43,697 nt of DNA from Chiloscyllium plagiosum (taxonomy: Eukaryota): positions 11,491,179-11,534,875 of the forward strand of contig NC_057753.1 of assembly GCF_004010195.1 (NCBI RefSeq), written 5' to 3'. The position numbers and the translations under genes were made by a program. Of the stretch, positions 3,436 through 43,344 are shown one piece after another; positions within the stretch are counted from its first letter, which is position 1, and each line of letters starts with the position of its first letter. The notes beneath the pieces are model-generated. The model saw nothing but the letters and a program-made list of their open reading frames with translations, ran no database searches and was not told the origin of the DNA.

Positions 3436-3975
3436 AATGTGGAGGAGCCGGTGTTGGATTGGGGTGGACAAAGTTTAAAGATCACACAACATTATACTGC
3501 AACAGGTTTATTTGGAAGCACTAGCTTTCTGAGCGCTGCACCTTCATCGGCTAGCTGTGGAGCAAGATCATAAGATATAGAATTTACAGCAAAAGATCAC
3601 AGTGTCATGCAACTGAAATGATATATTGAACAAACCTGGATTGCAGTTCTGTCTTTCATCTTTTAGAATGGGTAGCAGGTTTCTGTTCATTAATATGTAA
3701 ATCCCAAAACTACTTTTTAGTCACGTTCTCAAGATAACTTATAAAAAGAGGTGACATCTCAGCTCAGACAATGCATGAAAGGTGTGAGATTAAAGTCTTT
3801 CTTTATCCCAATCTTGAATCAGACTGGTTCTACTTCCAAAGTAGGAATTTATAAAATGTTACATGGATTGACTGTGTGTTTTTTGAGCAAAATAGAATGT
3901 ATCTCCAAATATAATTCTGCAAATGCAAATTCACCTCATAGACTTGTATGGGCGTGTGCTTGCATGAGTGAGAGA
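3436..3975 (-). mobile_element. Penelope-like hammerhead-bearing element, family B (single arm)
   Basis: Reverse complement of the sequence at 15220-15688 and 40070-40660; degenerate core CCGATGA-AGGTGCAGCGCTCA-GAAAGCTA-GTG at about 3518-3551. Confidence 0.7.
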
Positions 3976-4194
3976 GATGGTGTGAACATCTGATTTGAAT
4001 AATAGTCACCTCCCATGAGAGCTTCATAAAAGACTTTCAAGATAGTTTCTTATAATTCTGCAAATGCAAATTCACCCCATAGACTTGTATGGGCGTGTGC
4101 TTGCATGAGTGAGAGAGAGATGGTGTGAACATCTGATTTGAATAATAGTCACCTCCCATGAGAGCTTCATAAAAGACTTTCAAGATAGTTTCTT
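3910..4194. repeat. Two-copy tandem duplication, about 141 bp
   Basis: 3910-4050 repeated at 4051-4194; differs by a GA unit and a SNP. Confidence 0.9.
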
Positions 4195-4549
4195 AGCACG
4201 TTCTGAAACTGACCAAGGATCCTGCCAGGCTTGGATAACATGGTAATGTTACAACATGGGGTAAACCTTTCTGCTAATTAAACCTGGCACACAGAAAAGC
4301 TCACCTCGCACCGTGATCTGTATAAGTATGACTGACAAAGAACTACTAAATCCCACCATTTAAAGAAAAAAATTCACAATTTATTCTTTAACTCCAAGAA
4401 AAAAAATTAAACAACTATCTACACTGTAATCTTCCTTTGTCTGATCGATTTATCTACCTCCCACTCTACAACACTAAACTGATCCGATTAAGTTTAAAAT
4501 TTGATTTTCTTGTTAAAACCAGTCAGCTGGGTCGATTCTTATCTGTATC

Positions 4550-6040: not shown

Positions 6041-6203
6041 AACATTGTCTTCCCAGGATACAGGACATTTGCTGCTCTCACCTACCAAAACTATCCTGAA
6101 ACTAATTGCACTGATACTCTGGTTAAACAGGAAGATTATCATGGGAGCCATCTACACAAAAATCTCCATTTCATGTTCTTTGGGTCACCCAAGGATCGAA
6201 ATG

Positions 6204-6341
6204 ATTTGGAGGTGCTGGTGTTGGACTGGAGTGGGCAAAGTTAAAAATCACACAACATCAGGTTATAGTCCAACAGGTTTATTTGGAAGTCCTTCCAAAT
6301 AAACCTGTTGGACTATAACCTAGTGTTGTGTGATTTTTAAA
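6204..6341. mobile_element. Family B fold-back element (collapsed hairpin)
   Basis: About 50 bp near-perfect inverted arms meeting at GGAAG-TC-CTTCC (6285-6296); TSD CAAGGAT(C/A)GAAATG at 6190-6203 and 6342-6355. Confidence 0.85.
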
Positions 6342-6421
6342 CAAGGATAGAAATGCAAGGACATATTTCTCCAAACTTCGTGTTTGACTTGCCCTTGAAT
6401 TTAGAGTGTTCCATGATATAG

Positions 6422-6631
6422 GGGTTGGGAGTGTGATGCTGGAAAAGCACAGCAGGTCAGGCAGTATCCAAGACAGCAGGAGAATCGACGTTTCAGGCAT
6501 AAGCCCTGATGAAGGGCTTATGCCCGAAATGTTGATTCTTCTGTTCCTCGGATGCTGCCTGACCTGCTGTGCTTTTCCAGCATCACACTCCCAACTGTGA
6601 TCTCCAGCATCTGCAGTCCTTACTTTCTCCC
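6422..6631. mobile_element. Family A fold-back hammerhead element
   Basis: Inverted arms centred near 6509; perfect 15-bp TSD TGTTCCATGATATAG at 6407-6421 and 6632-6646. Confidence 0.9.
6506..6538 (+). ncRNA. Minimal hammerhead ribozyme motif
   Basis: CUGAUGA-A-GGGC-UUAU-GCCC-GAAAUGUU; the 5' strand of stem I is lost at the fold-back junction. Confidence 0.55.
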
Positions 6632-7171
6632 TGTTCCATGATATAGTATTTAATTATCATCCATCAAAAGCAGTGTCCAGTCTTGTCTGAGTGCAGAGCC
6701 AACTCAACTGACCCAACAAGCTGCATAACCCTTCTGTCTGTTCTTTAGATGTGACATCCTCTTTCTCTGTTGACCCAACCGGATGACTCTCTGGTACTCA
6801 TCCACATCTTTATACTGCTTAACCTAAGTATTTAAAAGCAGCTAGCCTGAGCTTCCACAAACAATGGGATGGTTGTGGCACACAAAAAAAGGGCACGTTC
6901 ACCCGTCATGTCTGTGTAAGGAATAAATTTCAACTAGAATTGTTCACAAAATAACAGCTACACAACTCTCTGTGTTTCCCCTGTCACAGATGCTGGACAG
7001 AGGAGCAAATTTCAGTGAATCTGGAACCATGTGCTTTGTTTGAACTAAAACTGCATGACTTGGAGGGAAATGAAAAGAAGGCATTTTGCTAAGTGTCCTG
7101 CCCACTGCCCACTGCACCAGGTTCGCGCAGCCGCAGTGCGGGCTTGCTGGCCAGCGCGAGCACGCGGTCTA

Positions 7172-7431
7172 GAGCAGGCGCAGTTCGGGCTCGCTGCCTC
7201 GGGCGGGCCTGATGTGCGGAGCAGGCGCAGTGCGTTCCCTCTGTCTAGCTCTTGCCCGCCGTCCGGAGCAGGCGCAGTGCGGACCCGCTGTCCGGAGCAG
7301 GCGCAGTGCGTCCCCTCTGTCTAGCTCTTGCCCGCCGTCCGGAGCAGGCGCAGTGCGTTCCCTCTGTCTAGCTCTTGCCCGCTGTCCGGAGCAGGCGCAG
7401 TGCGGACCCGCTGTCCGGAGCAGGCGCAGTG
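7172..7431 (+). repeat. CpG-rich minisatellite in the ZNF gene 2 promoter/5'UTR
   Basis: GAGCAGGCGCAGT core present 7 times; units start at 7218, 7265, 7294, 7341, 7388 and 7417 (47/29/47/47/29 bp). Confidence 0.9.
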
Positions 7432-7481
7432 TGAGCTGCCTGTCCAGCAGTGAATGCAGGAAGAGTGCCAGCTGTGCAAAG

Positions 7482-8146
7482 GTATGGTGTCCATCTCTTT
7501 CTCAGAGACATTGACATCCTCTTATTCTCTCAGTTTGAAATATTTGCTTGGCTTCAAAGGCTGACATTCCTCATGTTCACCGTTGCAATTTTACTTTGCA
7601 GAGGGAGACCCCGTTTGAGTGATACAAAACAGAGCCATGTCTTATGTGCTACGCTTCTGACTTTTGTTTGTGGTTCTCTCATCGTCATTTCCAATTATTT
7701 CTGGTCCCGTGAGGGGATTCAACAAATGTTGCACATATTTCCAGTAATGGAAAGTATTCAGCAAATCAACTGCTCACTAACCCAGCTGCCCCCATGTATC
7801 CTTCCCAACTCCCTCTATCCCTGCAATTCTATTTCTGCCAAATACCCATCCAGTTTAGTTTTGTTATCATTAATGATCTTTACTTCCGTCTTGCTCGCAG
7901 GCAGAGAATTCCAGAGAGTCCCAAACTGTTTCTCAAGCTAAGAAACAGTGTATAGTATGCAACATAGTTATTTAGAATTTGTCTTTCAGTTTGAATCAGC
8001 AGGAAGATTAGTTACAGCAGATATGGGATGGTGGTTTACAGAGTTTTGGCAGATATGAGAGAACAGATTGTTCTGTGGATTATTCTCTTTGCTCCAAATT
8101 CCTAACCAGGACTGACACAGATGACTTTTCTAATCTCCTTTTACAG
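7482..8146 (+). other. Probable 5'UTR intron of ZNF gene 2
   Basis: Donor AAG|GTATGG at 7481/7482; acceptor TTTTCTAATCTCCTTTTACAG ending at 8146 with a CTAAT branch point. Confidence 0.55.
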
Positions 8147-8387
8147 GCTACTGAGGGGGAGGATGATTTTGAAATGGAAATCTCAAACCAAACCGAACAT
8201 CAGTTCATCGGGAACTGAACGTGTGGGCCTTTGAGGGGAACCTCAGTTCTGTTTGCTTCAGACTGGTAAAAGCAACAAACACACACCTGAGTGACAGTTT
8301 CACAGTGATTTGACCGTGGGTAGAGGTTTACCCATTGGACGGGCGAAAGAAATCGCACCGAGCACATGTTCTAAGGGCACTCCCTCC

Positions 8388-9146
8388 ATGGAGAAACCGT
8401 GGAAATGTGGGGACTGCGGGAAAGTGTTCCCAACACCGTCCGCGCTGGAAACTCACCGGCGCAGTCACACGGGGGAGAGGCCGTTCACTTGCTCAGTGTG
8501 TGGGAAGGGATTCACACAGTCGAGCCACCTGCGATTGCACCAGCGGGTTCACACTGGAGAGAAGCCATTCACCTGCTCGGTGTGCGGGAACGCTTTCCGT
8601 GACTCGGGCAGCCTTCAGAAGCACCAGCGATTCCACACGCGGGAGAAGCCGTTCACCTGCTCTGTGTGCGGGAAGGGATTCGGTCAGTCGTCCAGTTTAC
8701 GCAGACACCAGAGCAGCCACACTGAGGACAGGCCTTACAAATGCTCTGACTGCGGGGCTGCTTTCAAGAGCTCCTGGGACTTGATGCTGCACCAGCGCAT
8801 CCACACTGAGGAGAGGCCATTCGGCTGCTCCCACTGCGCCAAGAGGTTTAAAACGTCGTCTGAGCAGCAGCGACATCAGCGGGTTCACACTGGGGAGCGG
8901 CCGTCTGTCTGTCCCGTCTGCGGGAAGGGCTTCGTTCAGTCCTCTGGCCTGCAGAGGCACCGGCGGGTCCACACCGGGGAGAGGCCGTTCATCTGCTCCG
9001 TCTGTGGGAAGGCCTTCACCCAGTCCACCAACCTGCGGACCCACCAGCGCATTCACACCGGGGAGAGGCCGTTCTCCTGCTCCGAGTGCGGGAAAGGATT
9101 CACTCAGCTGTCCAACATGGTGTCGCACCAGCGCGTTCACAAGTGA
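8388..9146 (+). CDS. Tandem C2H2 zinc-finger protein, 9 fingers, 252 aa, no effector domain
   Basis: ATG at 8388 ([12 protein letters not shown]); nine CxxC-x12-HxxxH repeats with TGE(R/K)PF-type linkers; TGA ends at 9146. Confidence 0.92.
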
Positions 9147-9447
9147 TTGCGGGGTTGGGGGAGATGGAGGTTGGTTTGATTCTGCCTGAGAGCCACATCC
9201 GGGACTCGACCCTGCTCACTTTGACATTGGGAGAGGAGGGGGCGGAGGGTTCGGACAAGCCGCTCTCTCACCCACTTTACTTCCAGAGGGGGCTGACACT
9301 CTCTGAGTCTGGGACTGCACCTTCCCTATGGAAACGATCCGCAGGAACACAAGAAGGACATTTTGTATTGTGGATGGAGCATATTATTTGTCCGACCACT
9401 GCAGTTAGATCGGAAATAGACATATTTCCGGGAAATAGACATCTCTG

Positions 9448-10325
9448 GGAGAAAGTGAGGGCTGCAGATGCTGGAGATCAGAGCTGAAAAATGTGTTGCT
9501 GGAAAAGCGCAGCAGGTCAGGCAGCATCCAGGGAGCAGGAGAATCGACGTTTCGGGCATAAGCCCTTCTTCAGGAATGAGGAAAGTGTGTCCNNNNNNNN
9601 NNNNNNNNNNNNNNNNNNNNNNNNNNNNNNNNNNNNNNNNNNNNNNNNNNNNNNNNNNNNNNNNNNNNNNNNNNNNNNNNNNNNNNNNNNNNNNNNNNNN
9701 NNNNNNNNNNNNNNNNNNNNNNNNNNNNNNNNNNNNNNNNNNNNNNNNNNNNNNNNNNNNNNNNNNNNNNNNNNNNNNNNNNNNNNNNNNNNNNNNNNNN
9801 NNNNNNNNNNNNNNNNNNNNNNNNNNNNNNNNNNNNNNNNNNNNNNNNNNNNNNNNNNNNNNNNNNNNNNNNNNNNNNNNNNNNNNNNNNNNNNNNNNNN
9901 NNNNNNNNNNNNNNNNNNNNNNNNNNNNNNNNNNNNNNNNNNNNNNNNNNNNNNNNNNNNNNNNNNNNNNNNNNNNNNNNNNNNNNNNNNNNNNNNNNNN
10001 NNNNNNNNNNNNNNNNNNNNNNNNNNNNNNNNNNNNNNNNNNNNNNNNNNNNNNNNNNNNNNNNNNNNNNNNNNNNNNNNNNNNNNNNNNNNNNNNNNNN
10101 NNNNNNNNNNNNNNNNNNNNNNNNNNNNNNNNNNNNNNNNNNNNNNNNNNNNNNNNNNNNNNNNNNNNNNNNNNNNNNNNNNNNNNNNNNNNNNNNNNNN
10201 NNNNNNNNNNNNNNNNNNNNNNNNNNNNNNNNNNNNNNNNNNNNNNNNNNNNNNNNNNNNNNNNNNNNNNNNNNNNNNNNNNNNNNNNNNNNNNNCGCTT
10301 TTCCAGCAACACATTTTTAAGCTCT
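9448..10325. mobile_element. Family A element with inverted arms spanning an N gap
   Basis: Full 3' end on the minus strand at 9448-9592; inverted arm end CGCTTTTCCAGCAACACATTT at 10296-10318. Confidence 0.8.
9541..9578 (-). ncRNA. Minimal type-I hammerhead ribozyme motif (best-preserved family A copy)
   Basis: Minus strand CAUUC-CUGAAGA-A-GGGC-UUAU-GCCC-GAAACGUC|GAUUC. Confidence 0.7.
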
Positions 10326-10544
10326 ACATTTGTCTCTGTCCCATTGAGTCTCCAGCACAGGGCCAGGCCAGTCGGCTCAGTTGGCCTCTGTCGGTGTTTA
10401 CGCTACACCTGAGCCTCCCACCCCTTTTTATCTCCTCCCACCATCCGCATATCATATCCTTCTGTTCCTTTCTCACTCGTGTCTGTACCCAGCTCCCTCT
10501 TTAATTGGATTCCCCCCTTCAACTCCTTCCCCTCCGTCAGTGTA

Positions 10545-10830
10545 CAGCTATCCCCTGCTGTCCACTAGCCGAGCGTTCCTGTGAAACCTCTGGTAAGCCG
10601 AAATGGTGGAAAGCGAAGAAGCGATTACCATTAGTTCGCCTTTTCTCGCAAAAGCGAAAATCCTCTTCGGATTTCCTCTGGTTAGCAAAAACAGGTACCA
10701 GATTCTGGATTAGTGGTGCTGGAAGAGCACAGCAGTTCAGGCAGCATCCAAGGACAGGTACCAACCTACCAGCCTTTCGTACAAGGGAAGTGGGCGTAAA
10801 CCGAGCTTCCGCCAAGTGGGGGTGTGCCTG
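10545..10830. mobile_element. Degenerate Tigger/pogo-type MITE
   Basis: TA flanks at 10543-10544 and 10831-10832; imperfect TIRs CAGCTATCCCCTGCT / AGTGGGGGTGTGCCTG. Confidence 0.45.
10701..10753 (-). mobile_element. 53-bp family A-related fragment with its own TSD
   Basis: GTGCTGGAAGAGCACAGCAGTTCAGGCAGCATCC flanked by ACAGGTACCA at 10691-10700 and 10754-10763. Confidence 0.75.
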
Positions 10831-10837
10831 TATCTTG

Positions 10838-10982
10838 TAGAGCTCTCAAGGATAGTGGAATCAAGGGTTATGGAGATAAGGCAGGAACAGGATACTGATT
10901 AAGGATGATCAGCCATGATCACATTGAATGGTGGTGCGGGCTCGAAGGGCTGAATGGCCTACTCCTGCACCTATTGTCTATT
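10838..10982 (+). mobile_element. CR1 3' end
   Basis: Near-identical to 31-178. Confidence 0.8.
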
Positions 10983-11778
10983 GTTCGGAAGAAGGCCAGA
11001 CATGAGTTGCTTTCCAGATGAAGCAGGAGGGTGAATCCGAATCGCCCGGGCCCTGCTCCGGCCCCCAGCCCCTTTGGGATTCGGTCACAGATGTGCACCA
11101 GCGACAAGGTCAGGCACTCTCTTCAAGAGGAGCAACAGCAAGGATGAGCCCCGCGGTTGGAGGGGGGCGGCAGGAGGTCCCCAAACCCGATGGTGCTACC
11201 GGACTCCGTGTCGACGGGCGGGGGGGGGGGGGCGGATAAGGCGGGAGTGGGACAGAGTCTTTCAGGAGCTGTCAGCGAGAGCAAGGACTTCTCCGAACCC
11301 CCCTCCCGGGGAGGCCAGCAATTGGAGTTTGACCCTCATCCGAGGAGGGACATATACCTCTGTCCCTCCTCCTGGGCCCCCACCGATACAAGAGACTGCT
11401 GCTCGGTGTCAGATTTCCGCACACGGTTTGCATTCAGTGATACAAGGGGACCCCAGTGTCTCCAAGGGGGGGATTGGAGTAGATGGATAGGAACGTGGCT
11501 GGGATTAGTATTGACTCGAGCAGGACGTACGGTCTGTCGGAGACAAACTACTCGCTGGCTGTGGCACTGCTAACTCACGAGCGGTGAAATCAACCCCAGC
11601 CGGGGAAAAAAAAAGCAACAAAATTACGTTGGACTGGGATGTGACTGGCAATTTGTAATCGCAAATTGCTTAGTGAGTTGTGGTTTGTTCAATTTGTTCA
11701 CAAACTCTCTGGCACTCGCTTTGTAAATGTGCAACAGTAGAATATGTGTGTTTCCTCTGGTTCAGAGGAGGTGGTCAT

Positions 11779-12230
11779 GGCGGCTCAGTGGTTAGCACCG
11801 CTGCCTCACGGCGCCAGGGACCCTGGTTCGATTCCAGCCTCGGACCAACTGTCTGTCTGTGTGGAGTTTGCACATTCTGCCATGCTAAAGGTTAGGGTGG
11901 ATTGTCTGTGCTAAATTACCAGTAGTGCCCAGGGATGTGCAAGTTAGGGTGAGTTGGCCATGCTCAGTTGCCCTGTAGCATCCAGGGATGTGTAGGTCAG
12001 GGTGGATTGGCCATGCTAAACTACCCATAGTGCCCAAGTATGTACAGGTTAGAGTGGATTGGCCATGCTAAATTACCAATAGTGCCCAAGGATGTGCAGG
12101 TTAGGTGAGTCAGCCGTGGTTAAAAACCCCATGAGGGGTTACGGAAAGGGATGGGATGCTCTTCAGTGGGTCCTTGCAGTCTCAGTGGGCTGAATGGCCT
12201 ACATCCGGACTGTAGGATTCTACAATTCTA
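11779..12230 (+). mobile_element. HE1-type tRNA SINE with an internal ~50-bp tandem expansion
   Basis: GGCTCAGTGGTTAGC A-box and GGTTCGATTCC B-box; about 5 copies of GGTTAGGGTGGATTGGCCATGCTAAATT...GGATGTGCA. Confidence 0.8.
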
Positions 12231-12329
12231 TGTGGTTGCAATGGGGATCAGAGCTGGGTACTAAATATCCAAGGCGGGCAGATAGGGCAAACCCGTAGGC
12301 GAGAAATTACATCAATAGCAAGACGTGAT

Positions 12330-12705
12330 ATAGAGTCATAGAGATGCTCAGCACCGAAACAGACCCTTCAGTCCAACTCGTTCACGTCGACCAGATATCC
12401 CTAAATTAGTCTGGTTTATCAGCATTTGGCCCATATCCCACCAAACTCTTCCTAGTCATGTTCCCATCCAGATGCCTTTTAAATGCTGTAATTGTACCAG
12501 CCTCCATCACTTCCTCTGGCAGCTCATGTCAGACACACACCACCCTCTGCGTGAAATAGTTGCCCCCCGCCCCCCCCCCTTCCCCCAGGTCCCTTTTAAA
12601 TCTTTCCCCTCTCACTCCCACCCTATGGTCCTCTAGTTCTGGACTCCCCTACCCCTGGGGAAAGTCTTTGTCTGTTTATCCTATCCCTGCCCCTCACAAT
12701 TATAT
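12330..12705 (-). mobile_element. CR1 3' fragment
   Basis: Reverse complement of the CR1 terminal region seen at 14054-14355. Confidence 0.75.
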
Positions 12706-12882
12706 GAACCAGAGTCAGAAGACGTAGAATCTGTGTGGGTAGAGTTCAGGAACTACGAAAGAAAAAAGAAGACAGTGATGGGAGTCAGGATGCGGGGAAG
12801 AAAATAAATCCAAGGATTAAAAAGGCATGTAAGAAAAGCACTATTACAATAATCACAGGGGACCTCAATATCATCAATCACA

Positions 12883-13160
12883 GGCGGCTCAGTGGTTAGC
12901 ACCGCTGCCTCACAGCACCAGGGACCCAGGTTCGATTCCAGTCTCGGGCGACTGTCTGTGTGGAGTTCGGACATTCTCCCCGTGTCTGCGTGGGTTTCCT
13001 CCAGTCTCCTCTCACAACCCAAACATGTGCGGGTCAGGTGAATTGGCCATGCTAAATTGCCCATGAGTCAGAGGGAATTGGGTCTGGGTGGGTTGCCCTT
13101 CGGCGGGTCGGTGCGGGGCCGAAGGGCCTGTTTCCAACCATGTAGGGAATCTAATCTAAT
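12883..13160 (+). mobile_element. HE1-type SINE
   Basis: A and B boxes; tail GGGCCTGTTTCC...TAGGGAATCTAATCTAAT. Confidence 0.85.
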
Positions 13161-13592
13161 AATATATGCAGGTGGGCTGGGGAAAATCAGTTTGATAGCA
13201 GATCTCAAGAAAAGAAGTTCACGGAATGGGATTTTGGAACAGCTTGTGGTAGAGCCCACCAGGGAACCGGCGATTCTGGATTTGGTGATGCCTAACGAGG
13301 CAGACTTGATTAGGGAGCTTAAGTTGAAGGAACCCCTCTGGGGGAGAAACTGTAATACAAGAGAATTCCCCCTGCCTTTTGAGAGGGAGAAGCTGGAATC
13401 AGATATAACCGTCTTACAACGAGTACAGGTAACTCCAAAGACATGAGAGAGGAGCTGCCCAGAGTTGATTGGGAGGGGGAGCCAAACAGGGACGATGGTG
13501 GAGCAGTAAGGGCAGGGATTTCTGGGGATAATATCGAAGGCACAGCAGAAATTCATCCCAAGGAAGACGAAACATACTAAGGGGAGGATAAG

Positions 13593-13787
13593 CGCAGCAG
13601 GTCAGGCAGCATCCAGGGAACAGGAGAATCGACGTTTCGGGCATAAGCCCTTCTTCTTATGCCTGAAGAAGGGCTTATGCCCGAAATGTCGATTCTCCTG
13701 TTCCCTGGATGCTGCCTGACCTGCTGCGCTTTTCCAGCAACACATTTCCAGCTCTGATCTCCAGCATCTGCAGACCTCACTTTCTCC
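13593..13787. mobile_element. Family A fold-back hammerhead element
   Basis: Inverted arms centred near 13660; core CTGAAGA-A-GGGC-TTAT-GCCC-GAAATGTC at 13663-13690; 16-bp TSD CTAAGGGGAGGATAAG at 13577-13592 and 13787-13802. Confidence 0.9.
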
Positions 13788-13904
13788 TAAGGGGAGGATA
13801 AGGCAACTACGGCTGACAAGAGAAGCCAAAGTCAACATAAAAGTAAAAGAAAAAGCACGCAATGTGTTGGTGATAAGTGGAAAGCCTTTAAACACCAGCA
13901 GACG

Positions 13905-14855
13905 ACAACCTTTATTGGTCAGAGTATTGAGTACAGGAGTTGGGAGGTCATGTTGTGGCTGTACANNNNNNNNNNNNNNNNNNNNNNNNNNNNNNNNNNN
14001 NNNNNNNNNNNNNNNNNNNNNNNNNNNNNNNNNNNNNNNNNNNNNNNNNNNNNTCCAGAACTAGAGGGCATAGGTTTAGGGTGAGAGGAGAAAGATATAA
14101 AAGAGACCTAAGGGGCAACATTTTCACGCAGAGGGTGGTACGTGTGTGGAATGAGCCGACAGAGGAAGTGGTGGAGGCTGGCACAATTACAGCATTTTAA
14201 AAGGCATCTGGATGAGTATTTGAATAGGAGGGATATGGGGTATGAAATTGGAGGGATAGGTGGGTGCTGGCAGGTGGGACTAGATTGGGTTGGGATATCT
14301 GGTCAGCATGGGCAAGTTGGACTGAAGGGTCTGTTTCCGTGCTGTACATCGCTATGGCTTAATAACTTTAAAAAAAAATCATAGAGCAGAGGATGTGGAA
14401 GCGTTGAAAAGGGTGCAGAGGAGATTTACCAGGATGATGCCTGGTATGGAGGGAAGGTCTCATGAGGGATTTTAGGCTGTTTTCCTTAGAGAGAATAAGG
14501 TTAAGAGGTGACTTAATAGCAACGTACAAGATGATCAGAGGATCACATAAAGTGGACAGTGAGAGTCTTTTTCCTTGGATGGTGATGGCTAGCACGAGGG
14601 GACATAGCTTTAAATTGAGGGGTGATAGATATAGGACAGATGTCAGAGGTAGGTTCTTTACACAGAGAATAGTAAGGGTGTGGAACGCCCTGCCTGCAAA
14701 AATAGACTTGCCAAAATTAAGGGCCTTTAAATGGTCATTGGATAAACATATGGATGATAATGGAATAATGTGGATTAGATGGGCTTCAGATTGGTTTTAC
14801 AGTTCGGCACAACATCGAGGGCCGAAGGGCCTGTACTGCGCTGTTATGTTCTACA
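13905..14855 (+). mobile_element. Two consecutive CR1 3' fragments
   Basis: TRGHRFRVRG...FTQRVVRVWN and RLRGDLIATYK...TRGHSFKLRG...FFTQRIVRVWNALP C-terminal motifs. Confidence 0.85.
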
Positions 14856-14924
14856 TGAGGGTAAGCTAGCTAGTAATATAAAAGAAGATCGCAAGAATTT
14901 TTTAAAAGATCTATTAAAGGTAAC

Positions 14925-15688
14925 CATGCTGTGGAGGTGCTGGTGTTGGACTGGGGTAAACAAACTTAAAAATCACACAACACCAGGTTATAGTCCGTCA
15001 GGTTTATTTGGAAGCACTAGCTTTCGGAGCGCCGCTCTTTCGTCAGATAGCTAGCGGGACAGGATCATAAGACACAGAATTTAGAGTAAAAGATCACTGT
15101 CATATAATTGAAATGAAACCTGCAATCCATTCTAAAAGATGAAAAACGTAACAGTATCGCATGCACACACACATTCTCCTTCTCTACCCCTCTCTCTCTC
15201 ACACATACACACAAGTCTGTGGGGTGAATTTGCATTTGAAGAATTATATTAGCAGATACATCCTATTTTTGCTCAAAAAGCGCACAACCTGCAGGTAGTC
15301 AATTATGTATAACATTTTATCAATTCCTACTTTGGAGATCGACCCAGTCTGACTCTAAATTGGGATACAGACAGACTCGAACCAACCTGTAATGCATTGT
15401 CTGAGCTGAGATGTTACTTTTTTTTTTACAAAACCTTAAGTTATCTCAAGAATGTGACTTAAAAGTAGTTCTGGGATTTACATATTAATGAACCGAAACC
15501 TGCAACCCATTCTAAAAGATGAAGGACTTAACAGCAATCAAGGTTTGTTCAATATATTGTTTCAATTGCATGACACTGTGAGCTTTTGCTATAAATTCTG
15601 TGTCTTATGATCCTGATGAAGGAGCAGCGCTCGTCCTTCCAAATAAACCCTGTTAGACTTTAACCTGGTGTTGTGTGATTTTTAACCT
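14925..15688. mobile_element. Family B element with inverted arms
   Basis: 14968-15115 is the inverse of about 15560-15686; TSD TAT(T/A)AAAGGTAA at 14912-14923 and 15689-15700. Confidence 0.85.
15015..15049 (-). ncRNA. Minimal hammerhead ribozyme motif (family B)
   Basis: Minus strand UAU-CUGACGA-A-AGAGC-GGC-GCUCC-GAAAGCUA|GUG; palindromic AGCU stem III; 3-bp stem I. Confidence 0.65.
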
Positions 15689-15804
15689 TATAAAAGGTAA
15701 GGGTGAGGCAAGAGTGTATATGAGGCAGGAGAAATATTAATGGGGAATGAAGAAATGGTGGAGGAATTTCTATTTTCTGATGACATTGGCATTTAAGATT
15801 TGAC

Positions 15805-16042
15805 AGAGTCTAGATTAGAGTGGTTCTGGAAAAGTACAGCGGGTCAGGAAGCATCCGAGGAGCAGGAAAATCGACATTTCAGGCAAAAGCCCTTCATCAG
15901 GGATGGACATTTCTGATAAAGGGCTTTTGCCCGAACCGTCGATTTTCCTGCTCCTCGGATGCTGCCTGACCCGCTGTACTTTTCCAGAACCACTCTAATC
16001 TAGATTCTTGTTTCCAGCATCTGCAGTCCTCGGTTTTACCCC
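15805..16042. mobile_element. Family A (variant subfamily) fold-back element
   Basis: Inverted arms centred near 15906; minus-strand core CTGATGA-A-GGGC-TTTT-GCCT-GAAATGTC; TSD TTTAAGATTTGAC at 15792-15804 and 16043-16055, repeated again at 16059. Confidence 0.88.
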
Positions 16043-16289
16043 TTTAAGATTTGACCCCTTTAAGATTTGACAGACTGTTTCCTAAGCAAGGGTGATTCGT
16101 TTGAGATTTTCCCCACCGGATTAAAAAGTCTAGCCCAGCTACAGGGATGATTTAACATCAGAAATAAACCACAGCTGTCAGCCTGAACATGGTTCAAATT
16201 TGGATATCATTGACAGCAGCAACGTCATCTTTGCTCAGTTCCCGGAGTCAAATGTGAACATTTGTCCATTGGAAACTTTCCCTGGTGTT

Positions 16290-16885
16290 GAGCCTAAGAG
16301 CTGGCAAGTCATGTTAAAATTGTACAAGACTTTGGTTCGGCTGCATTTAGAATACTGTGTACAGTTCTGGTCACCACATTACCAAATGGATGTGGTCGCT
16401 TTGGAGAGGGTGTAGAGAAGGTTTATGAGGATATTGTCTGGTGTGGAAGGTGCGAGCTATATAGAAAGGTTGAGTGGATTGGGTTTATGTTCATTAGAAA
16501 AAAGAAGATTGAGGGGGAACCCTGATTGAGGTTTACCAAATCATGAAGGGTCTAGACAGGGTGGATAGAGACAAGCATTTTCCCAGGGTGAAGGATTCAA
16601 TAATGAGAGGTCACACTTTCAAGGTGAGAGGTGGAAAGTTTAAGGGGGATATACGCAGCAAATACTTTACACAGAGGGTGGTAGGTGTCTGGAACGCGTT
16701 GCCAGCGGAGGTGGTCGAAGCAGGCACGGTAGATTCATTTAAGATGCGTCTGGACAGATGCATGAGTAGGTGGGGAGCAGAGGGTGCTTAGGAGTTGGGT
16801 GACAGATTTAGACAGTGGATTTGGATTGGCTCAGGCTCGGAGGGCCGAAGGGCCTGTTCCTGGGCTGTACATTTTCTTTGTTCTT
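16290..16885 (+). mobile_element. CR1 3' fragment
   Basis: [29 protein letters not shown]...YFTQRVVGVWNALP. Confidence 0.85.
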
Positions 16886-17255
16886 TGAAAATGGGATGAG
16901 TGAGTGAATCCTGTGGCTCACGCCAAACATGCTGCTCCCTAATATGGGTTTGTTGGCAGAGTTACTGAAGTCCTTCCCACATTTAAATGACCTTTCTCCA
17001 ATCTGAAGGGACAGGTTTGCCAGCATGTTGGCTTATGGAGTGAATTTCTGCCCACAGATCTGGACGGCTATATGAATAGGAAAGGTTTAGAGGCGTGTGG
17101 GCCAAATGTTGGCAAATGGGACTAGATTAATTTAGGATATCTGTTTGGTATGAACGAATTGGACTGAAGGACTGTTGCCATGCTGTACAGCGCTATTGCT
17201 CTGAGACGGAGCAGATGTGATTGAGCTCAATGAATGAATGTACCGTTCCCACAGT

Positions 17256-17665
17256 TAAGAATCACACCACTCCAGGTTATAGTCCAACGGGTTAATTTGG
17301 AAGCACTAGCTTTCCAGAGCACTGTTCTTTTATCAGGTAACTGTGGAGCAGGATCACCAAGACACAGAATGTATAGCAAAAGATGTCGGTGTCATGTAAT
17401 TGAAGTGAAACCTGCAACCCATTCTAAACGATGAAAGACTTAACAGCATCACATGCGCACACACACACACACTCTCTCTCTCTCTCTCTCCCCTACATGT
17501 GTGCATGTGCACACACACACACAAAAGTGAATTTGCATTTGCAGAATGAAGGAGCAGCGCTCCAAAAGCTAGTGCTTCCAAATAAATCTGTTGGACTATA
17601 ACCTGGTGTTTGTGTGATTTTTCACTTTGTCCGCCCCAGACCAACACTGGCTCTTCCACATCATG
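17256..17665. mobile_element. Family B element with inverted arms
   Basis: 17256-17335 is the inverse of 17546-17625; degenerate hammerhead cores in both arms; TSD TTCCCACAGT at 17246-17255 and 17668-17677. Confidence 0.85.
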
Positions 17666-17954
17666 CCTTCCCACAGTGTGGACACGCTGGTGTCACAGCA
17701 AGATAGAGGCATCTCGGAACCTCTTCCCCACAAGCAGTCAAAGGGCAACCTCACTGGTGTCGAAGTGGGACAGATGAGCGAGTGAATCCTTTACGATATA
17801 CATTGCAGGTGAACAGCTTATGCCCTGTGTGGCCATGTGGTTGAGTTTACTGTTTGGTGATTTCCCCAGAATCCCCCCTCCTGCCATATTCATACAGCTC
17901 ATTCCAAGTCTGGTTACAGTTGTCCATCACCAGGCTTTGGTGAGCAGTTCATTG

Positions 17955-26400: not shown

Positions 26401-26924
26401 AAAAATTCTATTTTGATTTAATCCCTGCCCTCCCCTTCACTGTTTGATCACACAGCACTGTTTGTCACTGGCCACTTGGGTGTTTCTTTTCTTCCTGGAG
26501 GTGGGAATTGAATCAAGATTTGTGCACCTTGTGTCTTTCACTGTGTCTCATACCTGCAAACACACAACAAGGGTGCGGGGAGAAAAATAAGCACTACCGC
26601 AGTTAGGCGGTAGTGTGGGGGGGTAAAAAAAGAAAAAAAAACAGGAGTGTCAGAGGTTCTGTTCACTCTAAAATAAAGCGATAGAGATGGAAAAATTGGG
26701 AGAATGCAACCGGGTCTCTACAGGAAGCAGGGAGTGGGGATGCACAGCCCAAGTAACCGCCAGGCTCGGTGGATACGTAGCAGATTTCGATGGCCAGCCC
26801 ATCATCAGAAATGGAAGCTGAGATGTTGAGAAAGGGAATTGATAAGTCAGTGATGGACCCGGCGAAGGTTACAACAAGACAGAAATCAAAAACTGTCTTA
26901 AGTTTTCAAATTCTAAGGGACAGC

Positions 26925-27025
26925 AGGAAGCAGGGCTTTTGCCCGAAATGTCGATTTTCCTGCTCCTTGGATGCTGCCTGACTTGCTGTGCTTTTCCAGC
27001 ACCACTCTAAATCTCGACTCTGATC
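26925..27025 (+). mobile_element. Family A single-arm fragment
   Basis: AGGGCTTTTGCCCGAAATGTCGATTTTCCTGCTCC...; begins at stem II. Confidence 0.75.
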
Positions 27026-27492: not shown

Positions 27493-28371
27493 GTCTGTTC
27501 CCAAGACCAGCCAAGGTCATTGCAGTTACCGTACAACCAGAACGGCCCGTGTTTACCCAAAACCTGTTTCTCACATATTCTCCTTTCAATTGCTTATTGC
27601 CATGCACAATTAACCCTTAACAATCTGGGCTGGAGACATTTTCCTCCCTCATTGACACAAGGCTTGATCACGTGGAATCCAGGGAGAGCTAGCCAATGGG
27701 ACACAAAATTAGCCTGACGGTAGGAGACCGAGGATGGTGGTGGACGACTGGTACTCAGGCTGAGTGCTGAGAGAACCTGAGGACTGCAGATGCTGGAGGT
27801 CAGAGTCGAAAAGTGTGGTGCTGGAAAAACACAGCAGGTCTGGCAGCATCTGAGGAGCAGGAGAGTCGAGATTTCAGGCATAAGCCCTTCATCAGGAATG
27901 TGATGAAGGTCTTATGCCCGAAACGTCGGCTCTCCGTCTGTTCCCAAGACCAGCCAAGGTCATTACCGTACAACCAGAACGGCCCGTGTTTACCCAAAAC
28001 CTGTTTCTCACATATTCCCCTTTCAATTGCTTATTGCCATGCACTATTAACCCTTAACAATCTGGGCTGGAGACATTTTCCTCCCTCATTGACACAAGGC
28101 TCGATCACGTGGAATCCAGGGAGAGCTAGCCAATGGGGCACAAAATTAGCCTGACGGTAGGAGACCGAGGATAGTGGTGGACGACTGGTACTCAGGCTGA
28201 GTGCTGAGAGAACCTGAGGACTGCAGATGCTGGAGATCAGAGTCGAAAAGTGTGGCGCTGGAAAAGCACAACAGGTCTGGCAGCATCTGAGGAGCAGGAG
28301 AGTCGAGATTTCAGGCATAAGCCCTTCATCAGGAATGTGATGAAGGTCTTATGCCCGAAACGTCGGCTCTC
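27493..28371. repeat. Two-copy tandem duplication, about 440 bp
   Basis: 27493-27935 repeated at 27936-28371 with a few SNPs and a 6-bp indel. Confidence 0.9.
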
Positions 28372-29807: not shown

Positions 29808-30237
29808 ATTCTCCCCATGTTTGCATGGGTTTCCTCCAGGAGCTCCGGTTTCCTCCCACAGTCCAAAGATGTGCAGGTTAGGTGAACTGGCCACGCTAAT
29901 TTGCCCGTAGTGTTAGGTGCAGGGGTAAATGTAGGGGAATGGGTCTGGGTGGGTTGCTCTTCGGAAGGCCGGTGTGGACTTGGTGGGCCAAAAGGGCTTG
30001 TTTCCACACTGTAGGGAATCTAATCTGATCTAATCTTTCCGATTCATGTATCTATCCAAACATTGTAATCCAACGTTACAATAAATGTAGGGGAATGGGT
30101 CTGGGTGGGTTGCTCTTCGGAAGGCCAGTGTCGACTTGGTGGGCCGAAGGGCTTGTTTCCACACTGTAGGGAATCTAATCTGATCTAATCTTTCCGATTC
30201 ATGTATCTATCCAAACATTGTAATCCAACGTTACAAA
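29808..30237 (+). mobile_element. HE1-type SINE fragment with a 156-bp duplicated tail
   Basis: SINE body and AATCT tail; 29926-30081 repeated at 30082-30237. Confidence 0.8.
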
Positions 30238-31419
30238 AATGTTGTAATTGTACCCGCATCCACCACTTTCTCACTCGCGAACCATCCTCTGAGCAAAACA
30301 TTTGCCATTCCGGTCTTATTTAAATCTCTCACCTTAAAAACGCTCTCCCAAACTGAAATTCCCCCATTCTCGGGAAAACACAAGAACAACCAACTCTATC
30401 TATACCTCTCATCATTCTATCAACTTCTATCAGATCGCCTCTCAAGCACTTGTACACTCCAGTGAAAAAAGTTTCAGCCTGTCCAGCCACACTTTTTAAC
30501 TCATAACTTCAAAATCAAGCAACATCCTGGTAAATCTCTTCTGAACCCATCTCCAGCTTGACAAAATCCTTCCAAACACCAGGTGACCAGAACTGGACAC
30601 AGTACTCCAGATGAAGCCTCACCAGTACCCTGTACAACCTCAACATAACTTCTCAACTCCTGTATTCAAAGGACAGACCAATGAAGGCAGTGGTAGAGAT
30701 GGATACAGTTAGACCATTTAAAAGGCATCAGGACAGATATGTAGATTGGAAAGGTTTAGAGGGATATGGGTCAAATGCTGGCAAATAAGAATACATCCGT
30801 TGACTCATCATCTTTAGCCGTTTACTCAGCATGGGAAGGATATTTAACCTTGTGGGGAAATTTGGAATGACAGGTCATTGGATAAGGAGTAGCAGATTTC
30901 AAACAGATGTGGAGAAATTACTTAACTCAATAGGTCATTATTTCTTGAAATTCACTCCCCAGACTGGTCTGGATGATAGAACATGGAGTACATTTAAGGA
31001 GGAGATAGACAGATGTTTGATCAGAATAGGGTTGAAGGGTTATGGAGAGGAAGCAAGAAAGGGGAGTTGAAGCCGAGATACGATCAGCCTCGATGGTATT
31101 AAATGGTGGAATTGGCTCAATGGGCTGAATGGTGTACTCCTGCTCCCCGATGTCATGGTCTCACTGGGTTGACTTCTGATCTACCTGCAGTGGGAGGCAA
31201 ACTCTGTTTCCTAACCAGGATAAAGTAAATGTTGCTCATCAGCTTCTGGGGATCGTTTCAGAGGAAACGTGCAATCCCAGGCTAGGACAGCATCAGCCCC
31301 ACTGGAATTTTTTAAAAAACTCACACTGACCCTCCCACTTCACCCACTGTCCGAATGAACATGGTTCAGTCCTGGATGTGATTCTCAGCAGCAAGAATAG
31401 CAGAGTCCAATTGCTGTCT

Positions 31420-32766
31420 TCACTGATGAACTTTCTGGTGTCGCCTCAGCTTGCATGACTGGATAAATCCCCTCCCACACACAGAGCAGGTGAAAGGCTT
31501 CTCCCCAGTGTGAATTCGCTGATGTTTCAGCACAGCAGATGAATCCCGGAAAGCTTTCCCACACACGGTGCAGGGGAATGGTCTCTCCCCGGTGTGAATG
31601 CGCTGGTGGATCAACAGTCTGACCGACTGAGTGAATCCCTTCCCACACTCAGAGCAAGTAAACTGCCTCTCCCCGGTGTGAAGTTGCTGGTGTTTCTTGA
31701 GGCTACAGGAGTGAGCAAATCCCTTCCCACACTCAGAGCAGGTGAACGGCCTCTCCCGGGTGTGCACTCGCCGGTGCCTCCGCATGCTGCAGGGATCGCT
31801 GAAGGTTTCTCCACACACGGAGCAGGAGAACGGCCTCTCCCCGGTGTGAACCCGCTGGTGTGTCAGCAGCCTGGATAACGTACTGCATCCCTTCCCGCAC
31901 TCTGAGCAGGTGAACGGCCATTGCCCGGTGTGGGTTTGCTCGTGTTGCTGAAGGCTGCATAACCGAGTGAATCGCTTCCCACATACAGAGCAGGTGAATG
32001 GCCGCTCCCCGGTGTGAACTCTCTGATGTGACAGTAGTGAAGCAGAGTGAGCAAATCCCTTCCCGCACTCAGAGCAGGTGAATGGCCTCTCCCCGGTGTG
32101 AATTCGCTCATGTTTTCGAAGGCAGGATAACCGACTGAATCGCTTATCACACCCAAAGCAGGTGAATGGCTTCTCCCCGGTGTGAACTAGCTTGTGTGCC
32201 AGTAGGGAAGAGGAGTGCACAAATCCCTTCCCGCAGTCAGAGCAGGTGAACGGCCTCTCCCCGGTGTGCACTCGCTGATGTGACAGCAAGTGGAATGACT
32301 CTGTGAATCCCTTCCCACACTCGGAGCAAGTGAACGGCCTCTCCCCGGTGTGAACATGCTGGTGCGCCAGCAGTCTGGACGATGCACTGAATCCCTTCCC
32401 GCACTCGGAGCAGGTGAAAGGCCATTCCCCGGTGTGAATTCGCTCATGGTTTAGCAGGCTGGATGATCGACTGAATCCCTTCCCACACTTGAAGCAGATG
32501 AACGGCCTCTCCCCGGTGTGGACTCGCTTGTGCGCCACCAACAAAGAAGACTGAGTGAATCCCTTCCCACAATCGGAGCAAGTGAACGGCCTCTCCCCGG
32601 TGTGAACTCTCCGGTGTCTCTGCAGGTCGGAGAAATGAGTGAAACGCTTCCCACAGTCAGAGCAGGTGAAAGGCCTCTCCCCGGTGTGAACGCGTCGGTG
32701 AATCTCCAGGTCAGACGGATACCTGTACCGTTTCCCACAGTCCCCACACTGCCATGGCTTCTCCAC
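31420..32766 (-). CDS. Tandem C2H2 zinc-finger protein, 16 fingers; start uncertain (GTG at 32766, or upstream in-frame ATG at 33105/33120)
   Basis: Uninterrupted ORF with 16 CxxC-x12-HxxxH repeats and TGERPF linkers. Confidence 0.9.
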
Positions 32767-32884
32767 GGTGCTGTTGTCCTTGTGTCCCTCCAGGTTGGAT
32801 GATGAACTGGAGCCTGAAGTGCCCACACACACAGAACCCCCTGATGGTGTCTCCTGGAGGAATGTTATTGCAGCAGCAGCAGCA

Positions 32885-37924: not shown

Positions 37925-38787
37925 GGTTGATGAACTTTCTTGTGTCTCCGTATCATTCATGACTGGATAAATCCCCTTCCCACACACTGAGCAGGTGAAT
38001 GGTTTCTCCCCGGTGTGAATTCGCTGGTGTTTCAGCACAGCAGTTGGATCCCTGAATCCTTTCCCACACACTGAGCAGGTGAATGGCTTCTCCCTGGTGT
38101 GAATTCGCTGGTCTTTCAGCACAGCGGATGAATCCCTGAATGCTTTCCCACACACTGTGCAGAGGAATGGTCGCTCCCCAGTGTGAACGCGCTGGTGGAC
38201 CAACAACTGGCACAACTGAGTGAATCCCTTCCCACACTCAGAGCAAGTGAACGGCCTCTCCCCGGTGTGTACCCACCGTTGTCTCCGCATGCTAGACGGA
38301 TCGCTGAATCATTCTGTACACTCAGAGCAGGAGAATGGCCTCTCTCTGGTGTGAACCCACTGATGTGACAGTAGGGAAGAGGAGAGTGCGAATCCCTTCC
38401 CGCACTCAGAGGAGGTGAATGGCCTCTCCCTGGAGTGAAATCGTTTGTGTTTTACAAGGCAGGATAACCGACTAGATCACTTATCGCACCCAAGGCAGGT
38501 GAATGGCTTCTCCCCGGTGTGTCAGCAGGGAAGAGGAGTCAGCGAAACCCTTCCCACAGTCTGAGCAGGTAAATGGCCTCTCCCCGGTGTGTACCCGCTG
38601 GAGTGCCAGCAGTTTGGACGAGAAACTGAATCTCTTCCCATACTCAGACCAGGAGAAAGGCCATTCCCTGATGTGAAGGTGTACAAGGCAGGATGACCGA
38701 CTGAATGCCTTACCGCACTCGGAGCAGGTAAACGTCCTCTCACCTGTGTGAACCCGTTTGTGTGCCACCAGCGAAGAAGACTAATTG
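37925..38787 (-). pseudogene. C2H2 ZNF pseudogene, paralog of 31420-32766
   Basis: About 10 finger remnants with frameshifts, deletions and lost Cys/His residues; 5' part deleted. Confidence 0.88.
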
Positions 38788-38838
38788 AAAGGCCCTTGCG
38801 CTGCCCCCGTGCTGCGGGAGCTGGAGGAGGGGAGGGAA

Positions 38839-39870
38839 TTTTTTTTATATTTCAAAAATATACTTTATTCATAAAATAATTTGATGGTCTGTACAGTTGG
38901 TCATGCCATACATATGTAAACATGTACATACAGAGATCAGAATTTATCATTTTTATACAGGTCTGTACATTTTTCAATCATATGCCCATATAATTAGCTG
39001 AGGCGTCAGCAGAGCCCAAATGACTGCGCGGGCCCCCTGTTCTTCGTTAGGCANNNNNNNNNNNNNNNNNNNNNNNNNNNNNNNNNNNNNNNNNNNNNNN
39101 NNNNNNNNNNNNNNNNNNNNNNNNNNNNNNNNNNNNNNNNNNNNNNNNNNNNNNNNNNNNNNNNNNNNNNNNNNNNNNNNNNNNNNNNNNNNNNNNNNNN
39201 NNNNNNNNNNNNNNNNNNNNNNNNNNNNNNNNNNNNNNNNNNNNNNNNNNNNNNNNNNNNNNNNNNNNNNNNNNNNNNNNNNNNNNNNNNNNNNNNNNNN
39301 NNNNNNNNNNNNNNNNNNNNNNNNNNNNNNNNNNNNNNNNNNNNNNNNNNNNNNNNNNNNNNNNNNNNNNNNNNNNNNNNNNNNNNNNNNNNNNNNNNNN
39401 NNNNNNNNNNNNNNNNNNNNNNNNNNNNNNNNNNNNNNNNNNNNNNNNNNNNNNNNTTCAGCGTGTCCCTCAACACGTAGTCCTGGACCTTGGAATGTGC
39501 CAGTCTGCAACACTCAGTCGGGGTCAACTCCCTCAGCTGGAAGATCAGCAGGTTTCGGACCACCCAGAGAGCGTCCTTCACCGAGTTGATGATCCTCCAG
39601 GCACAGTTGATGTTTGTCTCGGTGTGCGTCCCGGGGAACAGGCCGTAGAGCACGGAATCCCGCGTCACAGCGCTGCTCAGGACGAACCTCGACAGACACC
39701 ACTGCATTCCTCTCCAGATTTCCTCTGCATAGGCACATTCCAGAAGGAGGTGTGTAACAGTCTCGTCCCCCCCCGCAGCCGCTTCGAGGGCAGCGTGCGG
39801 TGCGGCAGAGAGTCCGGGCGTGCATAAAGGATCTCACAGGCAGAGCCCTTCTCACCACCAGCCAAGCCAT
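38839..39870 (-). mobile_element. Tx1/L1-clade LINE 3' fragment
   Basis: AWLVVRRALPVR...CPRSGCG..ETVTHLLLEC zinc knuckle (frameshifted); VKDALWVVRN; AATAAA plus poly(A) at 38839-38870. Confidence 0.8.
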
Positions 39871-40029
39871 GGATGACCATCCTCCAAGATGAACTTCAGG
39901 ACAGACGACAGCGCAAAGTGGCCGAGCAGAGTCCGGTACCCATAGGGATGGCCTCAACTGTGTGCTTGGGTTCATGTCACACTACAGGTGACCCCACTGC
40001 ACTATACACTCACTCTTTCTCTCTCTCTC

Positions 40030-43228: not shown

Positions 43229-43344
43229 GGTGCTGTTGTCCTTGTGTCCCTCCAGGTTGGATGATGAACTGGAGCCTGAAGTGCCCACACACACAGAACC
43301 CCCTGATGGTGTCTCCTGGAGGAACGTTATTGCAGCAGCAGCAG

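Follow-up and report, generated by a model that had tools for sequence, protein, structure and literature searches.

Inverted pairs of a probable Neptune-type Penelope-like retrotransposon family in a zinc-finger gene cluster of the shark Chiloscyllium plagiosum

Introduction

Penelope-like retrotransposons (PLEs) leave insertions with inverted pseudo-long terminal repeats (pLTRs), a one-sided tail and a target-site duplication (TSD), as described in the accessible parts of the papers on which all our comparisons draw (PMC3846280, PMC8557442, PMC2377424). Minimal hammerhead ribozymes occur as opposite-strand pairs 100-700 bp apart, also in Neptune elements of fishes (PMC4209133). Poseidon of Anolis carolinensis (PAc), the one PLE tested in vitro, encodes a protein, predicted to act as a dimer, that cuts both strands and extends them, starting at two internal sites and with no start-site difference between the strands (PMC11167929), and the origin of the tail and the inverted arm in the PLE insertion cycle is still described as open (PMC8557442, PMC11167929). 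Here we analyze a stretch of 43,697 nucleotides of Chiloscyllium plagiosum (assembly GCF_004010195.1, contig NC_057753.1, positions 11,491,179 to 11,534,875; hereafter the window), which contains two families of inverted arms with a hammerhead motif, A and B. Family B is very probably the 3' untranslated region (UTR)/pLTR of an abundant, endonuclease-bearing (EN+) PLE of Neptune type, and its five copies in the window (E1-E5) old, 5'-truncated insertions. The insertion pattern and the minimal hammerheads are already known from PLEs; a poly(A) site inside the pLTR and the junctions shared by two neighboring copies are additional observations. Our literature search found nothing on point about shark PLEs.

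Inverted Pairs, Solo Copies and the One-Sided Tail

The window is a vertebrate-type C2H2 zinc-finger gene cluster, dense in repeats. BLAST of the five places named in a preliminary description of this DNA against the window returned eight family B arms, which form three head-to-head pairs (E1, 6204-6341; E2, 14924-15688; E3, 17256-17665) and two solo copies (E4, from 3436 on the minus strand; E5, to 40660 on the plus strand). BLAST and alignment bear out the inverted arms that the preliminary description had placed at 6204-6341, 14925-15688 and 17256-17665, with 3' ends facing outward in all three. Its single arms at 3436 and 40030 are indeed unpaired, but proved to be long 5'-truncated copies, the arm proper of the second lying at 40516-40660. 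It had also given TSDs of 10-14 bp, and these are present in all three pairs, measuring 14, 12 and 12 bp with one mismatch each.

E1 is the shortest pair. Between TSD copies at 6190-6203 and 6342-6355 (plus strand, as for all TSDs below; the last 3 nt of the left copy fit the tail end too) lie a minus-strand tail on the left arm only (6204-6240), the left arm (6241-6289, minus strand) and a tailless right arm (6290-6341, plus strand); the matching arm segments, 6241-6289 and 6292-6340, are 49 nt each, 96% complementary and separated by 2 nt. E2 is flanked by TSD copies at 14912-14923 and 15689-15700 and again carries its tail on the left arm only (14924-14965, minus strand), followed by the inverted left arm (14966-15116, minus strand) and a tailless right part (15155-15685, plus strand) composed of a CA/CT microsatellite, 3' UTR body and an arm with two small hammerhead deletions, the arms matching over 14966-15113 and 15560-15685. 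In E3, with TSD copies at 17244-17255 and 17666-17677 (10 bp exact), the left arm (17254-17408, minus strand) has no tail and a hammerhead core broken at G8, G10.1 and C11.1; the right arm (17546-17665, plus strand) begins inside the 5' edge of the core at a junction, J3, and ends in a tail at 17627-17665, the arms matching over 17250-17333 and 17546-17629.

The solo copies are built from the same parts. E4 (minus strand, 3436 to about 4000) comprises a tail (3436-3472), an arm and 3' UTR body, while E5 begins with the end of an open reading frame (ORF), discussed below, and continues (39992-40660, plus strand) through a microsatellite, an internally deleted 3' UTR, a short interspersed element (SINE) at 40226-40515, an arm and a tail. 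A TSD of variable length thus accompanies three of three pairs and neither of the two solo copies, for which the same flank search gave a best match of 6 bp, the level of the null; identical searches on random flank pairs yielded at least 12 bp in 11 of 3,000 cases. With the flanks joined in silico, no paralogous empty site was found in the window for E1 or E2, and the joined flanks of E3 gave weak zinc-finger matches only, mostly inside the TSD and right flank.

In each pair a C-rich tail of about 40 nt extends past the shared end of a single arm (the left arm in E1 and E2, the right arm in E3); the tail is present on both solo copies too, and its consensus length in the window is 41 nt. The family A pairs of this window follow the same rule, with one tail in six of six pairs and TSDs of 13-18 bp in five of six, so that one tail per pair is seen in all nine, a result with a probability of 0.002 if arms were independent at p = 0.5. 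That B is unrelated in sequence to A, as the preliminary description had it, agrees with an arm similarity between the families no higher than that of shuffled sequences: in four tests, 136-466 of 500 shuffles scored at least as high. The two families differ in their inner ends: most A arms end at the 5' edge of the hammerhead core, and five of eight B arms extend more than 100 nt beyond it. The common mechanism that had been proposed from the shared geometry is supported, but it is not new, being the published EN+ PLE insertion pattern; a Neptune-type family and a second, sequence-unrelated hammerhead family following one insertion rule in one genome is expected for PLEs.

On the sense strand the tail ends in ATG (window 14924-14928, 17662-17665), where the PLE ORF may start.

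Copies Elsewhere in the Genome

DNA contigs of three sequencing runs (X7, X16, X1) and RNA reads of a fourth (X21) were aligned on 14790-15770, the E2 region, at 82% likeness. The alignments comprise 62,855 (X7), 57,957 (X16) and 3,042 (X1) contigs and 3,753 reads (about 2% of the X21 run), totals that include a SINE-like flank at 14790-14855. Loose ends of contigs pile up at 14966 in all three DNA runs (459, 621 and 39 contigs for X7, X16 and X1) and at 14930-14932 in X16 (770) and X1 (35), the flanks at both places being mixed and mostly AT-rich; these positions are the two borders of the tail as read in E2. Among the fold-back copies listed, the left arms end at joints scattered over 14989, 14996, 15016, 15029 and 15035. 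These two end sites, common to other copies, and the thinning of copies in the 5' direction exclude fixed terminal inverted repeats (TIRs), which had been raised as the competing possibility: family B is a 3'-anchored retroelement with two fixed ends.

The ORF Link and Neptune-Type Assignment

Upstream of the microsatellite and B 3' UTR of E5, positions 39873-39991 (plus strand) hold the C-terminus of a PLE GIY-YIG endonuclease ORF, split into two frames by a short deletion and limited to the last ~40 residues. A profile built from the frames of 39870-39992 matched three Chiloscyllium punctatum proteins (3 of 86 candidates) at E-values of 2.7e-9 to 4e-7; P0001 and P0002 are among the proteins that the ORF end matches. 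A search of all representatives returned 11 matches with the same top protein, and among five further matches of that search which were read, four share the PLE C-terminus and one, P0033, is unrelated. The reciprocal comparison agrees: P0002 finds its best match on the window at 39840-39988 (E 1.8e-8), its single other match having an E-value of 0.26. A search of PDB sequences with the ORF-fragment profile returned nothing, and in the ESM Atlas the 32-aa ORF end reached a best score of 0.79, which is uninformative.

P0002 reads as a reverse transcriptase (RT) thumb, a CX4CxxC linker and a GIY-YIG domain, although Pfam assigned no family to P0001 or P0002. Its 29 longer relatives, recovered from 2,633 candidates, include shark proteins of 65-74% identity with ORFs of 730-960 aa; in four of them Pfam placed RVT_1 above the cut-off in every case and GIY-YIG in two, and their alignment contains DKG, YIDD and the linker finger. 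A CX2-5CxxC linker finger and a Cys pair inside the GIY-YIG core are found in P0002, P0004 and P0005, the motif lying outside the fragment preserved in the window. Neptune and Nematis have this finger and Penelope/Poseidon elements lack it (Craig et al. 2021, PMC8557442), and B is classed as Neptune-type because the matched proteins carry it. The autonomous partner that the preliminary description had called for is, judging from protein sequence, a putative Neptune-type PLE whose ORF end lies inside the window, at 39873-39991.

Several points weigh against this overall reading. The ORF link comes from one copy, E5, and no full-length B element, with the partial-tandem arrangement pLTR-ORF-pLTR, was found in the window. 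The choice between Neptune and Nematis draws on the linker motif and the vertebrate host. Strong AT-richness is seen in one of three TSDs (57%, 83% and 42% for E1, E2 and E3), and among the X7 ends listed, beyond which there are 2,334 further rows, none falls at 14930-14932. Finally, the evidence for thinning toward the 5' end is a drop of about 35-fold in X7 summed depth, from ~7e5 at 15582-15614 to ~2e4 at 15219-15251, and summed depth is not copy number and is distorted by E2's own mutations.

Within these limits the likeness to described systems is close. With EN+ PLEs of the Neptune clade, family B shares the C-terminal GIY-YIG domain and CX2-5CxxC finger of its matched proteins, 5' truncation, an adjacent inverted 5'-truncated copy and a tail at one end, given there as 30-40 bp; unlike them, it consists mostly of non-coding stumps at very high copy number, with a consensus tail of 41 nt (PMC8557442). 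Penelope insertions of Adineta vaga likewise show head-to-head inverted pLTRs, an optional tail on one of them, a TSD and microhomology junctions, but their TSDs measure 8-10 bp as opposed to 12-14 bp in B, the centers of E2 and E3 are not palindromic, and the B pairs contain no ORF (Arkhipova et al. 2013, PMC3846280). Non-LTR retrozymes, which are pLTR-derived, carry a type I hammerhead and are present in a chondrichthyan, form head-to-tail tandem units with a complete hammerhead each, in contrast to the head-to-head or solo, decayed B copies (bioRxiv 10.64898/2026.07.22.740005, as far as its text was available). Classification of B as such a retrozyme was rejected, no head-to-tail tandem units with a complete hammerhead having been encountered.

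Five shark gene models (P0003, P0008, P0011, P0013 and P0031: PPP1R12A-like, NOXP20-like, septin 5a, XRCC5 and USP8 isoforms) contain pieces of this PLE ORF, reflecting either exonization or an annotation artefact.

Insertion Mechanism

Beside the observed ORF link, one-sided tail, two fixed 3' ends, variable inner ends, variable TSD length and 5'-truncation gradient, we consider it rather probable that insertion as a whole proceeds by a staggered cut, priming at both target ends and head-to-head joining. In this scheme the RT/GIY-YIG protein would make a staggered cut of 12-14 bp, and the two target 3' ends would each prime internally initiated cDNA synthesis on uncleaved pLTR RNA, the tail start being used by one and the tail end by the other. 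The two cDNAs would stop at variable points and be joined head to head by microhomology, with an occasional template switch to a nearby copy; the outcome would be outward-facing arms, a single tail and a TSD. PAc likewise has two fixed 3' ends bounding a tail, AT-rich targets and a hammerhead upstream of the ends. It differs from B in belonging to the Penelope/Poseidon clade and in having an ORF that starts inside the hammerhead (Frangieh et al. 2024, PMC11167929, accessible text); in B, the frame opened by an AUG within the consensus core runs into a stop at the cleavage site. Since the PAc strands show no start-site difference, the one-tail rule is not explained by the published data.

Two-ended priming is our own proposal, and two circumstances tell against it: the literature search on twin priming in PLEs returned nothing on point, and the study of Adineta instead proposes self-priming on an antisense template, on the basis of palindromes at inverted junctions (PMC3846280, accessible parts). 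Under this alternative, the inverted arm would arise by fold-back self-priming of one cDNA or of an antisense template, followed by endonuclease trimming at the tail, and E1, a near-perfect hairpin with a 2-nt loop, has the expected form. The non-palindromic centers of E2 and E3 do not, and an extra step is needed to obtain one tail and a direct TSD. Nor are the arms of one element consistently closer to each other than to those of other elements (differences of 2, 4+1 and 7+1 within, 3-11 between), which speaks against it weakly, the copies all being old. We regard self-priming as a possible but distinctly less likely route than two-ended priming.

An improbable alternative is that hammerhead cleavage defines the template, the B mini-elements being retrozyme-like cDNAs of self-cleaved RNA. 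The full core in the consensus would allow it, the starts of the two E1 arms lie 0-3 nt 3' of the predicted cut (3 nt for the left arm) and a deletion in the right arm of E2 ends there. Against this, five of eight arms continue past the cut for over 100 nt in the 5' direction, the right arm of E3 starts at the 5' edge of the core, the window contains no tandem units, and the predicted hammerhead fold is poor (see below). Among the RNA read starts and ends listed there is no pile at the cut, a weak test with a 3'-biased library, and PAc hammerhead mutants insert normally (PMC11167929, accessible text). Nothing here shows the ribozyme driving insertion geometry, because all copies are decayed, E1 lacks the core and the PAc mutants behave as they do.

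That the arms are the TIRs of a DNA transposon or miniature element (MITE) can be dismissed: inverted ends, a TSD and very high copy number are what such an element would show, but the arms differ in length (49, ~150 and ~80 nt), one of them overhangs by 40 nt, TSD length varies, solo copies exist, copies thin out in the 5' direction, and the one-sided tail together with the joining of one copy to an RT-GIY-YIG ORF end rules out equal, fixed TIRs with a fixed TSD length.

The Hammerhead Motif

The preliminary description had read a consensus core of CUGAUGA-A-GGAGC-AGC-GCUCC with a palindromic AGCU and a CUA triplet. A majority consensus, built from the eight arms as that description had proposed, does contain it and fits the minimal type I hammerhead descriptor (5-bp stem II, palindromic AGCU, CUA), as well as G10.1-C11.1, the unpaired base, palindromic 15.2-16.2 and the NUH triplet. 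CUA triplets should be cleavable. The core is, however, intact in none of the eight arms and exists in the consensus only. The best-kept copy is in the left arm of E2 (15018-15046, minus strand; predicted cut between 15018 and 15017), where G10.1 alone is changed, and the majority letters of the three DNA runs give the consensus at 15038 and 15042, where this arm differs; the other core-bearing arms have 2-9 deviations, and E1 has no hammerhead core at all.

Metazoan PLE minimal type I hammerheads share with B the unpaired base between 9 and 10.1, G10.1-C11.1, the palindromic 15.2-16.2, a short stem I, the opposite-strand pair layout and a Neptune-type carrier (Cervera and de la Pena 2014, PMC4209133); in the two supplement files of that paper that were searched the AGCU/CUA variant was not found, and its accessible parts name no shark. 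The hammerhead fold of B is predicted at -9.3 kcal/mol, 2.5 above the minimum of -11.8 kcal/mol, with a stem II probability of 0.01-0.13 in the monomer, and it is not the minimum-energy fold in monomer or dimer folding. Rfam at the gathering score gave no match in the window, and a scan of metagenome contigs with the 23-nt core motif found no locus. Such weak predicted folding would fit reports that motifs of this kind have low activity, depending on a dimer or a protein. The hammerhead is probably a passenger of the pLTR, dead in these copies, with any activity probably depending on a dimer or a protein.

Four further observations concern this region. The right arms of E1 and E2 share a G-to-C change three bases past the cut (window 6289-6292, 15630-15636). 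The deletion in the right arm of E2 that ends at the predicted cut is 9-10 nt long and, with the E1 arm starts, makes two cases only. In the E5 hammerhead (40540-40560) a stem II pair has changed doubly from G-C to A-U, keeping the pairing despite a broken core. Loose ends at 15046 (244 and 259 contigs, 367 reads) mark copies with a different sequence 5' of the core and a C-G pair in stem I where the consensus has U-G; by their sequence, these appear to be a second B subfamily.

A Poly(A) Site in the pLTR

The X21 run is a single-cell poly(A) library of one sample. Of its 3,753 aligned reads, 874 have poly(T) loose ends before 14988 (454 reads), 14991 (263) or 14999 (157), and the three groups mark one site because the loose letters of the 14999 group follow the element on to about 14990. 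The addition sites in family copies (14988-14991, minus strand) lie 15-18 nt past an AATAAA signal (15006-15011, minus strand), which in the consensus is 9 nt 3' of the predicted hammerhead cleavage site, and a GU/U-rich stretch comes next. Among the DNA contig ends listed, none falls at the poly(A) site. The reads are mostly less than 95% alike to E2 and so derive from other copies. The end piece of the arm seems to serve as a poly(A) signal; the poly(T) ends may also come from oligo-dT priming on an A-run in the genomic sequence of some copy.

The nearer insertion end follows 22-25 nt downstream of the site. RNA cleaved at the site therefore cannot template either end, and the insertion template must be RNA that reads through it or else the upstream pLTR of a tandem. 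The placement is consistent with the internal initiation described for PAc, for which the accessible text mentions no poly(A) site located, as in B, between the hammerhead and the tail (PMC11167929). No report of a pLTR poly(A) site was found in the literature open to the search.

A Shared Center in E2 and E3

E2 and E3, 2.3 kb apart, match colinearly over the left arm, an inversion junction, J1 (~15115 in E2, ~17407 in E3), a 40-nt sense piece (15115-15154, plus strand, in E2; a second copy of 15495-15534), a further junction, J2 (~15155 and ~17449), and the microsatellite, as far as ~15245 and 17547. The E3 center (17407-17547, plus strand) thus corresponds to E2 15115-15245, beyond which E3 continues with its short right arm, beginning at the core's 5' edge. 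The two elements differ in TSDs, flanks and tail side. Assembly artefact was rejected as the source of J1 and J2, a 270-nt X1 contig crossing both in E2 (15008-15273) with no other letters and four gap positions. In the three DNA runs the J1 bin reaches no more than 0.9-1.3% of the depth found for the same sequence in the monomer, a soft bound. A hot spot at J1 as sole cause was also rejected, its inverted match of 8-10/16 being equalled by 494 of 129,540 16-mer pairs in the monomer.

One origin is likely because the junctions are real in E2 and rare elsewhere, and the inverted match at J1 is not unusual. We lean slightly toward the view, the simplest for two elements so close together, that the shared center arose once and was copied between neighbors at the DNA level, during insertion or later repair, in a direction that is not readable. 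One fact counts against such local copying: the left arms of E2 and E3 share only one private allele in 121 columns, about the level of recurrent mutation. The literature search on local template capture returned nothing on point. Identity between E2 and E3 is 79-90% by segment, and point mutations do not decide the origin.

Less likely, though it deserves weight, is that both are daughters of a preformed, non-autonomous inverted-repeat PLE master containing J1 and J2, moved as a unit with one tail kept each. The colinear stretch that runs from left arm to microsatellite and includes J1 and J2, combined with different TSDs and flanks, fits this; the left arms agree at four of five informative columns, and in Adineta pLTRs alone are able to mobilize unrelated sequence in trans (PMC3846280, accessible parts). 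The low J1 depth speaks against a master, however, as does the rarity with which an uncommon subfamily would yield two of five copies within 2.3 kb, and with tails on opposite arms and 370 bp missing from E3, neither copy can have given rise to the other directly through RNA. The small remaining likelihood falls to repeated independent formation of the center.

Neighboring Features

The five C2H2 zinc-finger arrays of the window lie at 1545-2265, 8380-9146, 31380-32790, 37960-38790 and 41930-43290, three of them inside a ~4-6.5 kb segmental duplication. The neighboring repeats are presumably SINE, CR1 and Tx1 elements. Head to head against the 5' end of E5 on the minus strand (38840-39875) is a 5'-truncated long interspersed element (LINE) with a C-terminal Cys/His motif, which we take to be Tx1-like; the flanks of the LINE/E5 pair differ, pointing to a later deletion. 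Tandem duplications of 120-440 bp with nearly identical copies at 3910-4195, 821-1077, 27526-28262 and 29920-30235, one of which crosses the 5' end of E4, are possibly gap-closing artefacts of assembly. A decayed RT-thumb fragment of another PLE family (26675-26929, minus strand; E 0.001 to P0015) stands head to head with a family A arm at 26927 and may belong to the autonomous partner of family A; no homologue of its RT-thumb-like part (26675-26845) was found among 11 candidates.

Implications

Two facets of PLE biology would, tentatively, be previously unreported. One is a working poly(A) site in the pLTR between the hammerhead and the two RT start sites, like the R/U5 border of an LTR. The other is the building of pairs by asymmetric dimer priming, once per start site (the one-tail rule, nine of nine), with a free cDNA end able to invade a neighbor and take its center, as in E2 and E3. 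A shark genome with so many short pairs would let the one-tail rule, the junction spectrum and local capture be counted. If the reading is true, mature polyadenylated RNA would be unable to template an insertion end, and the very many dispersed arms may donate 3' ends to shark transcripts; if host genes use the pLTR poly(A) site, these relics would shape shark 3' UTRs.

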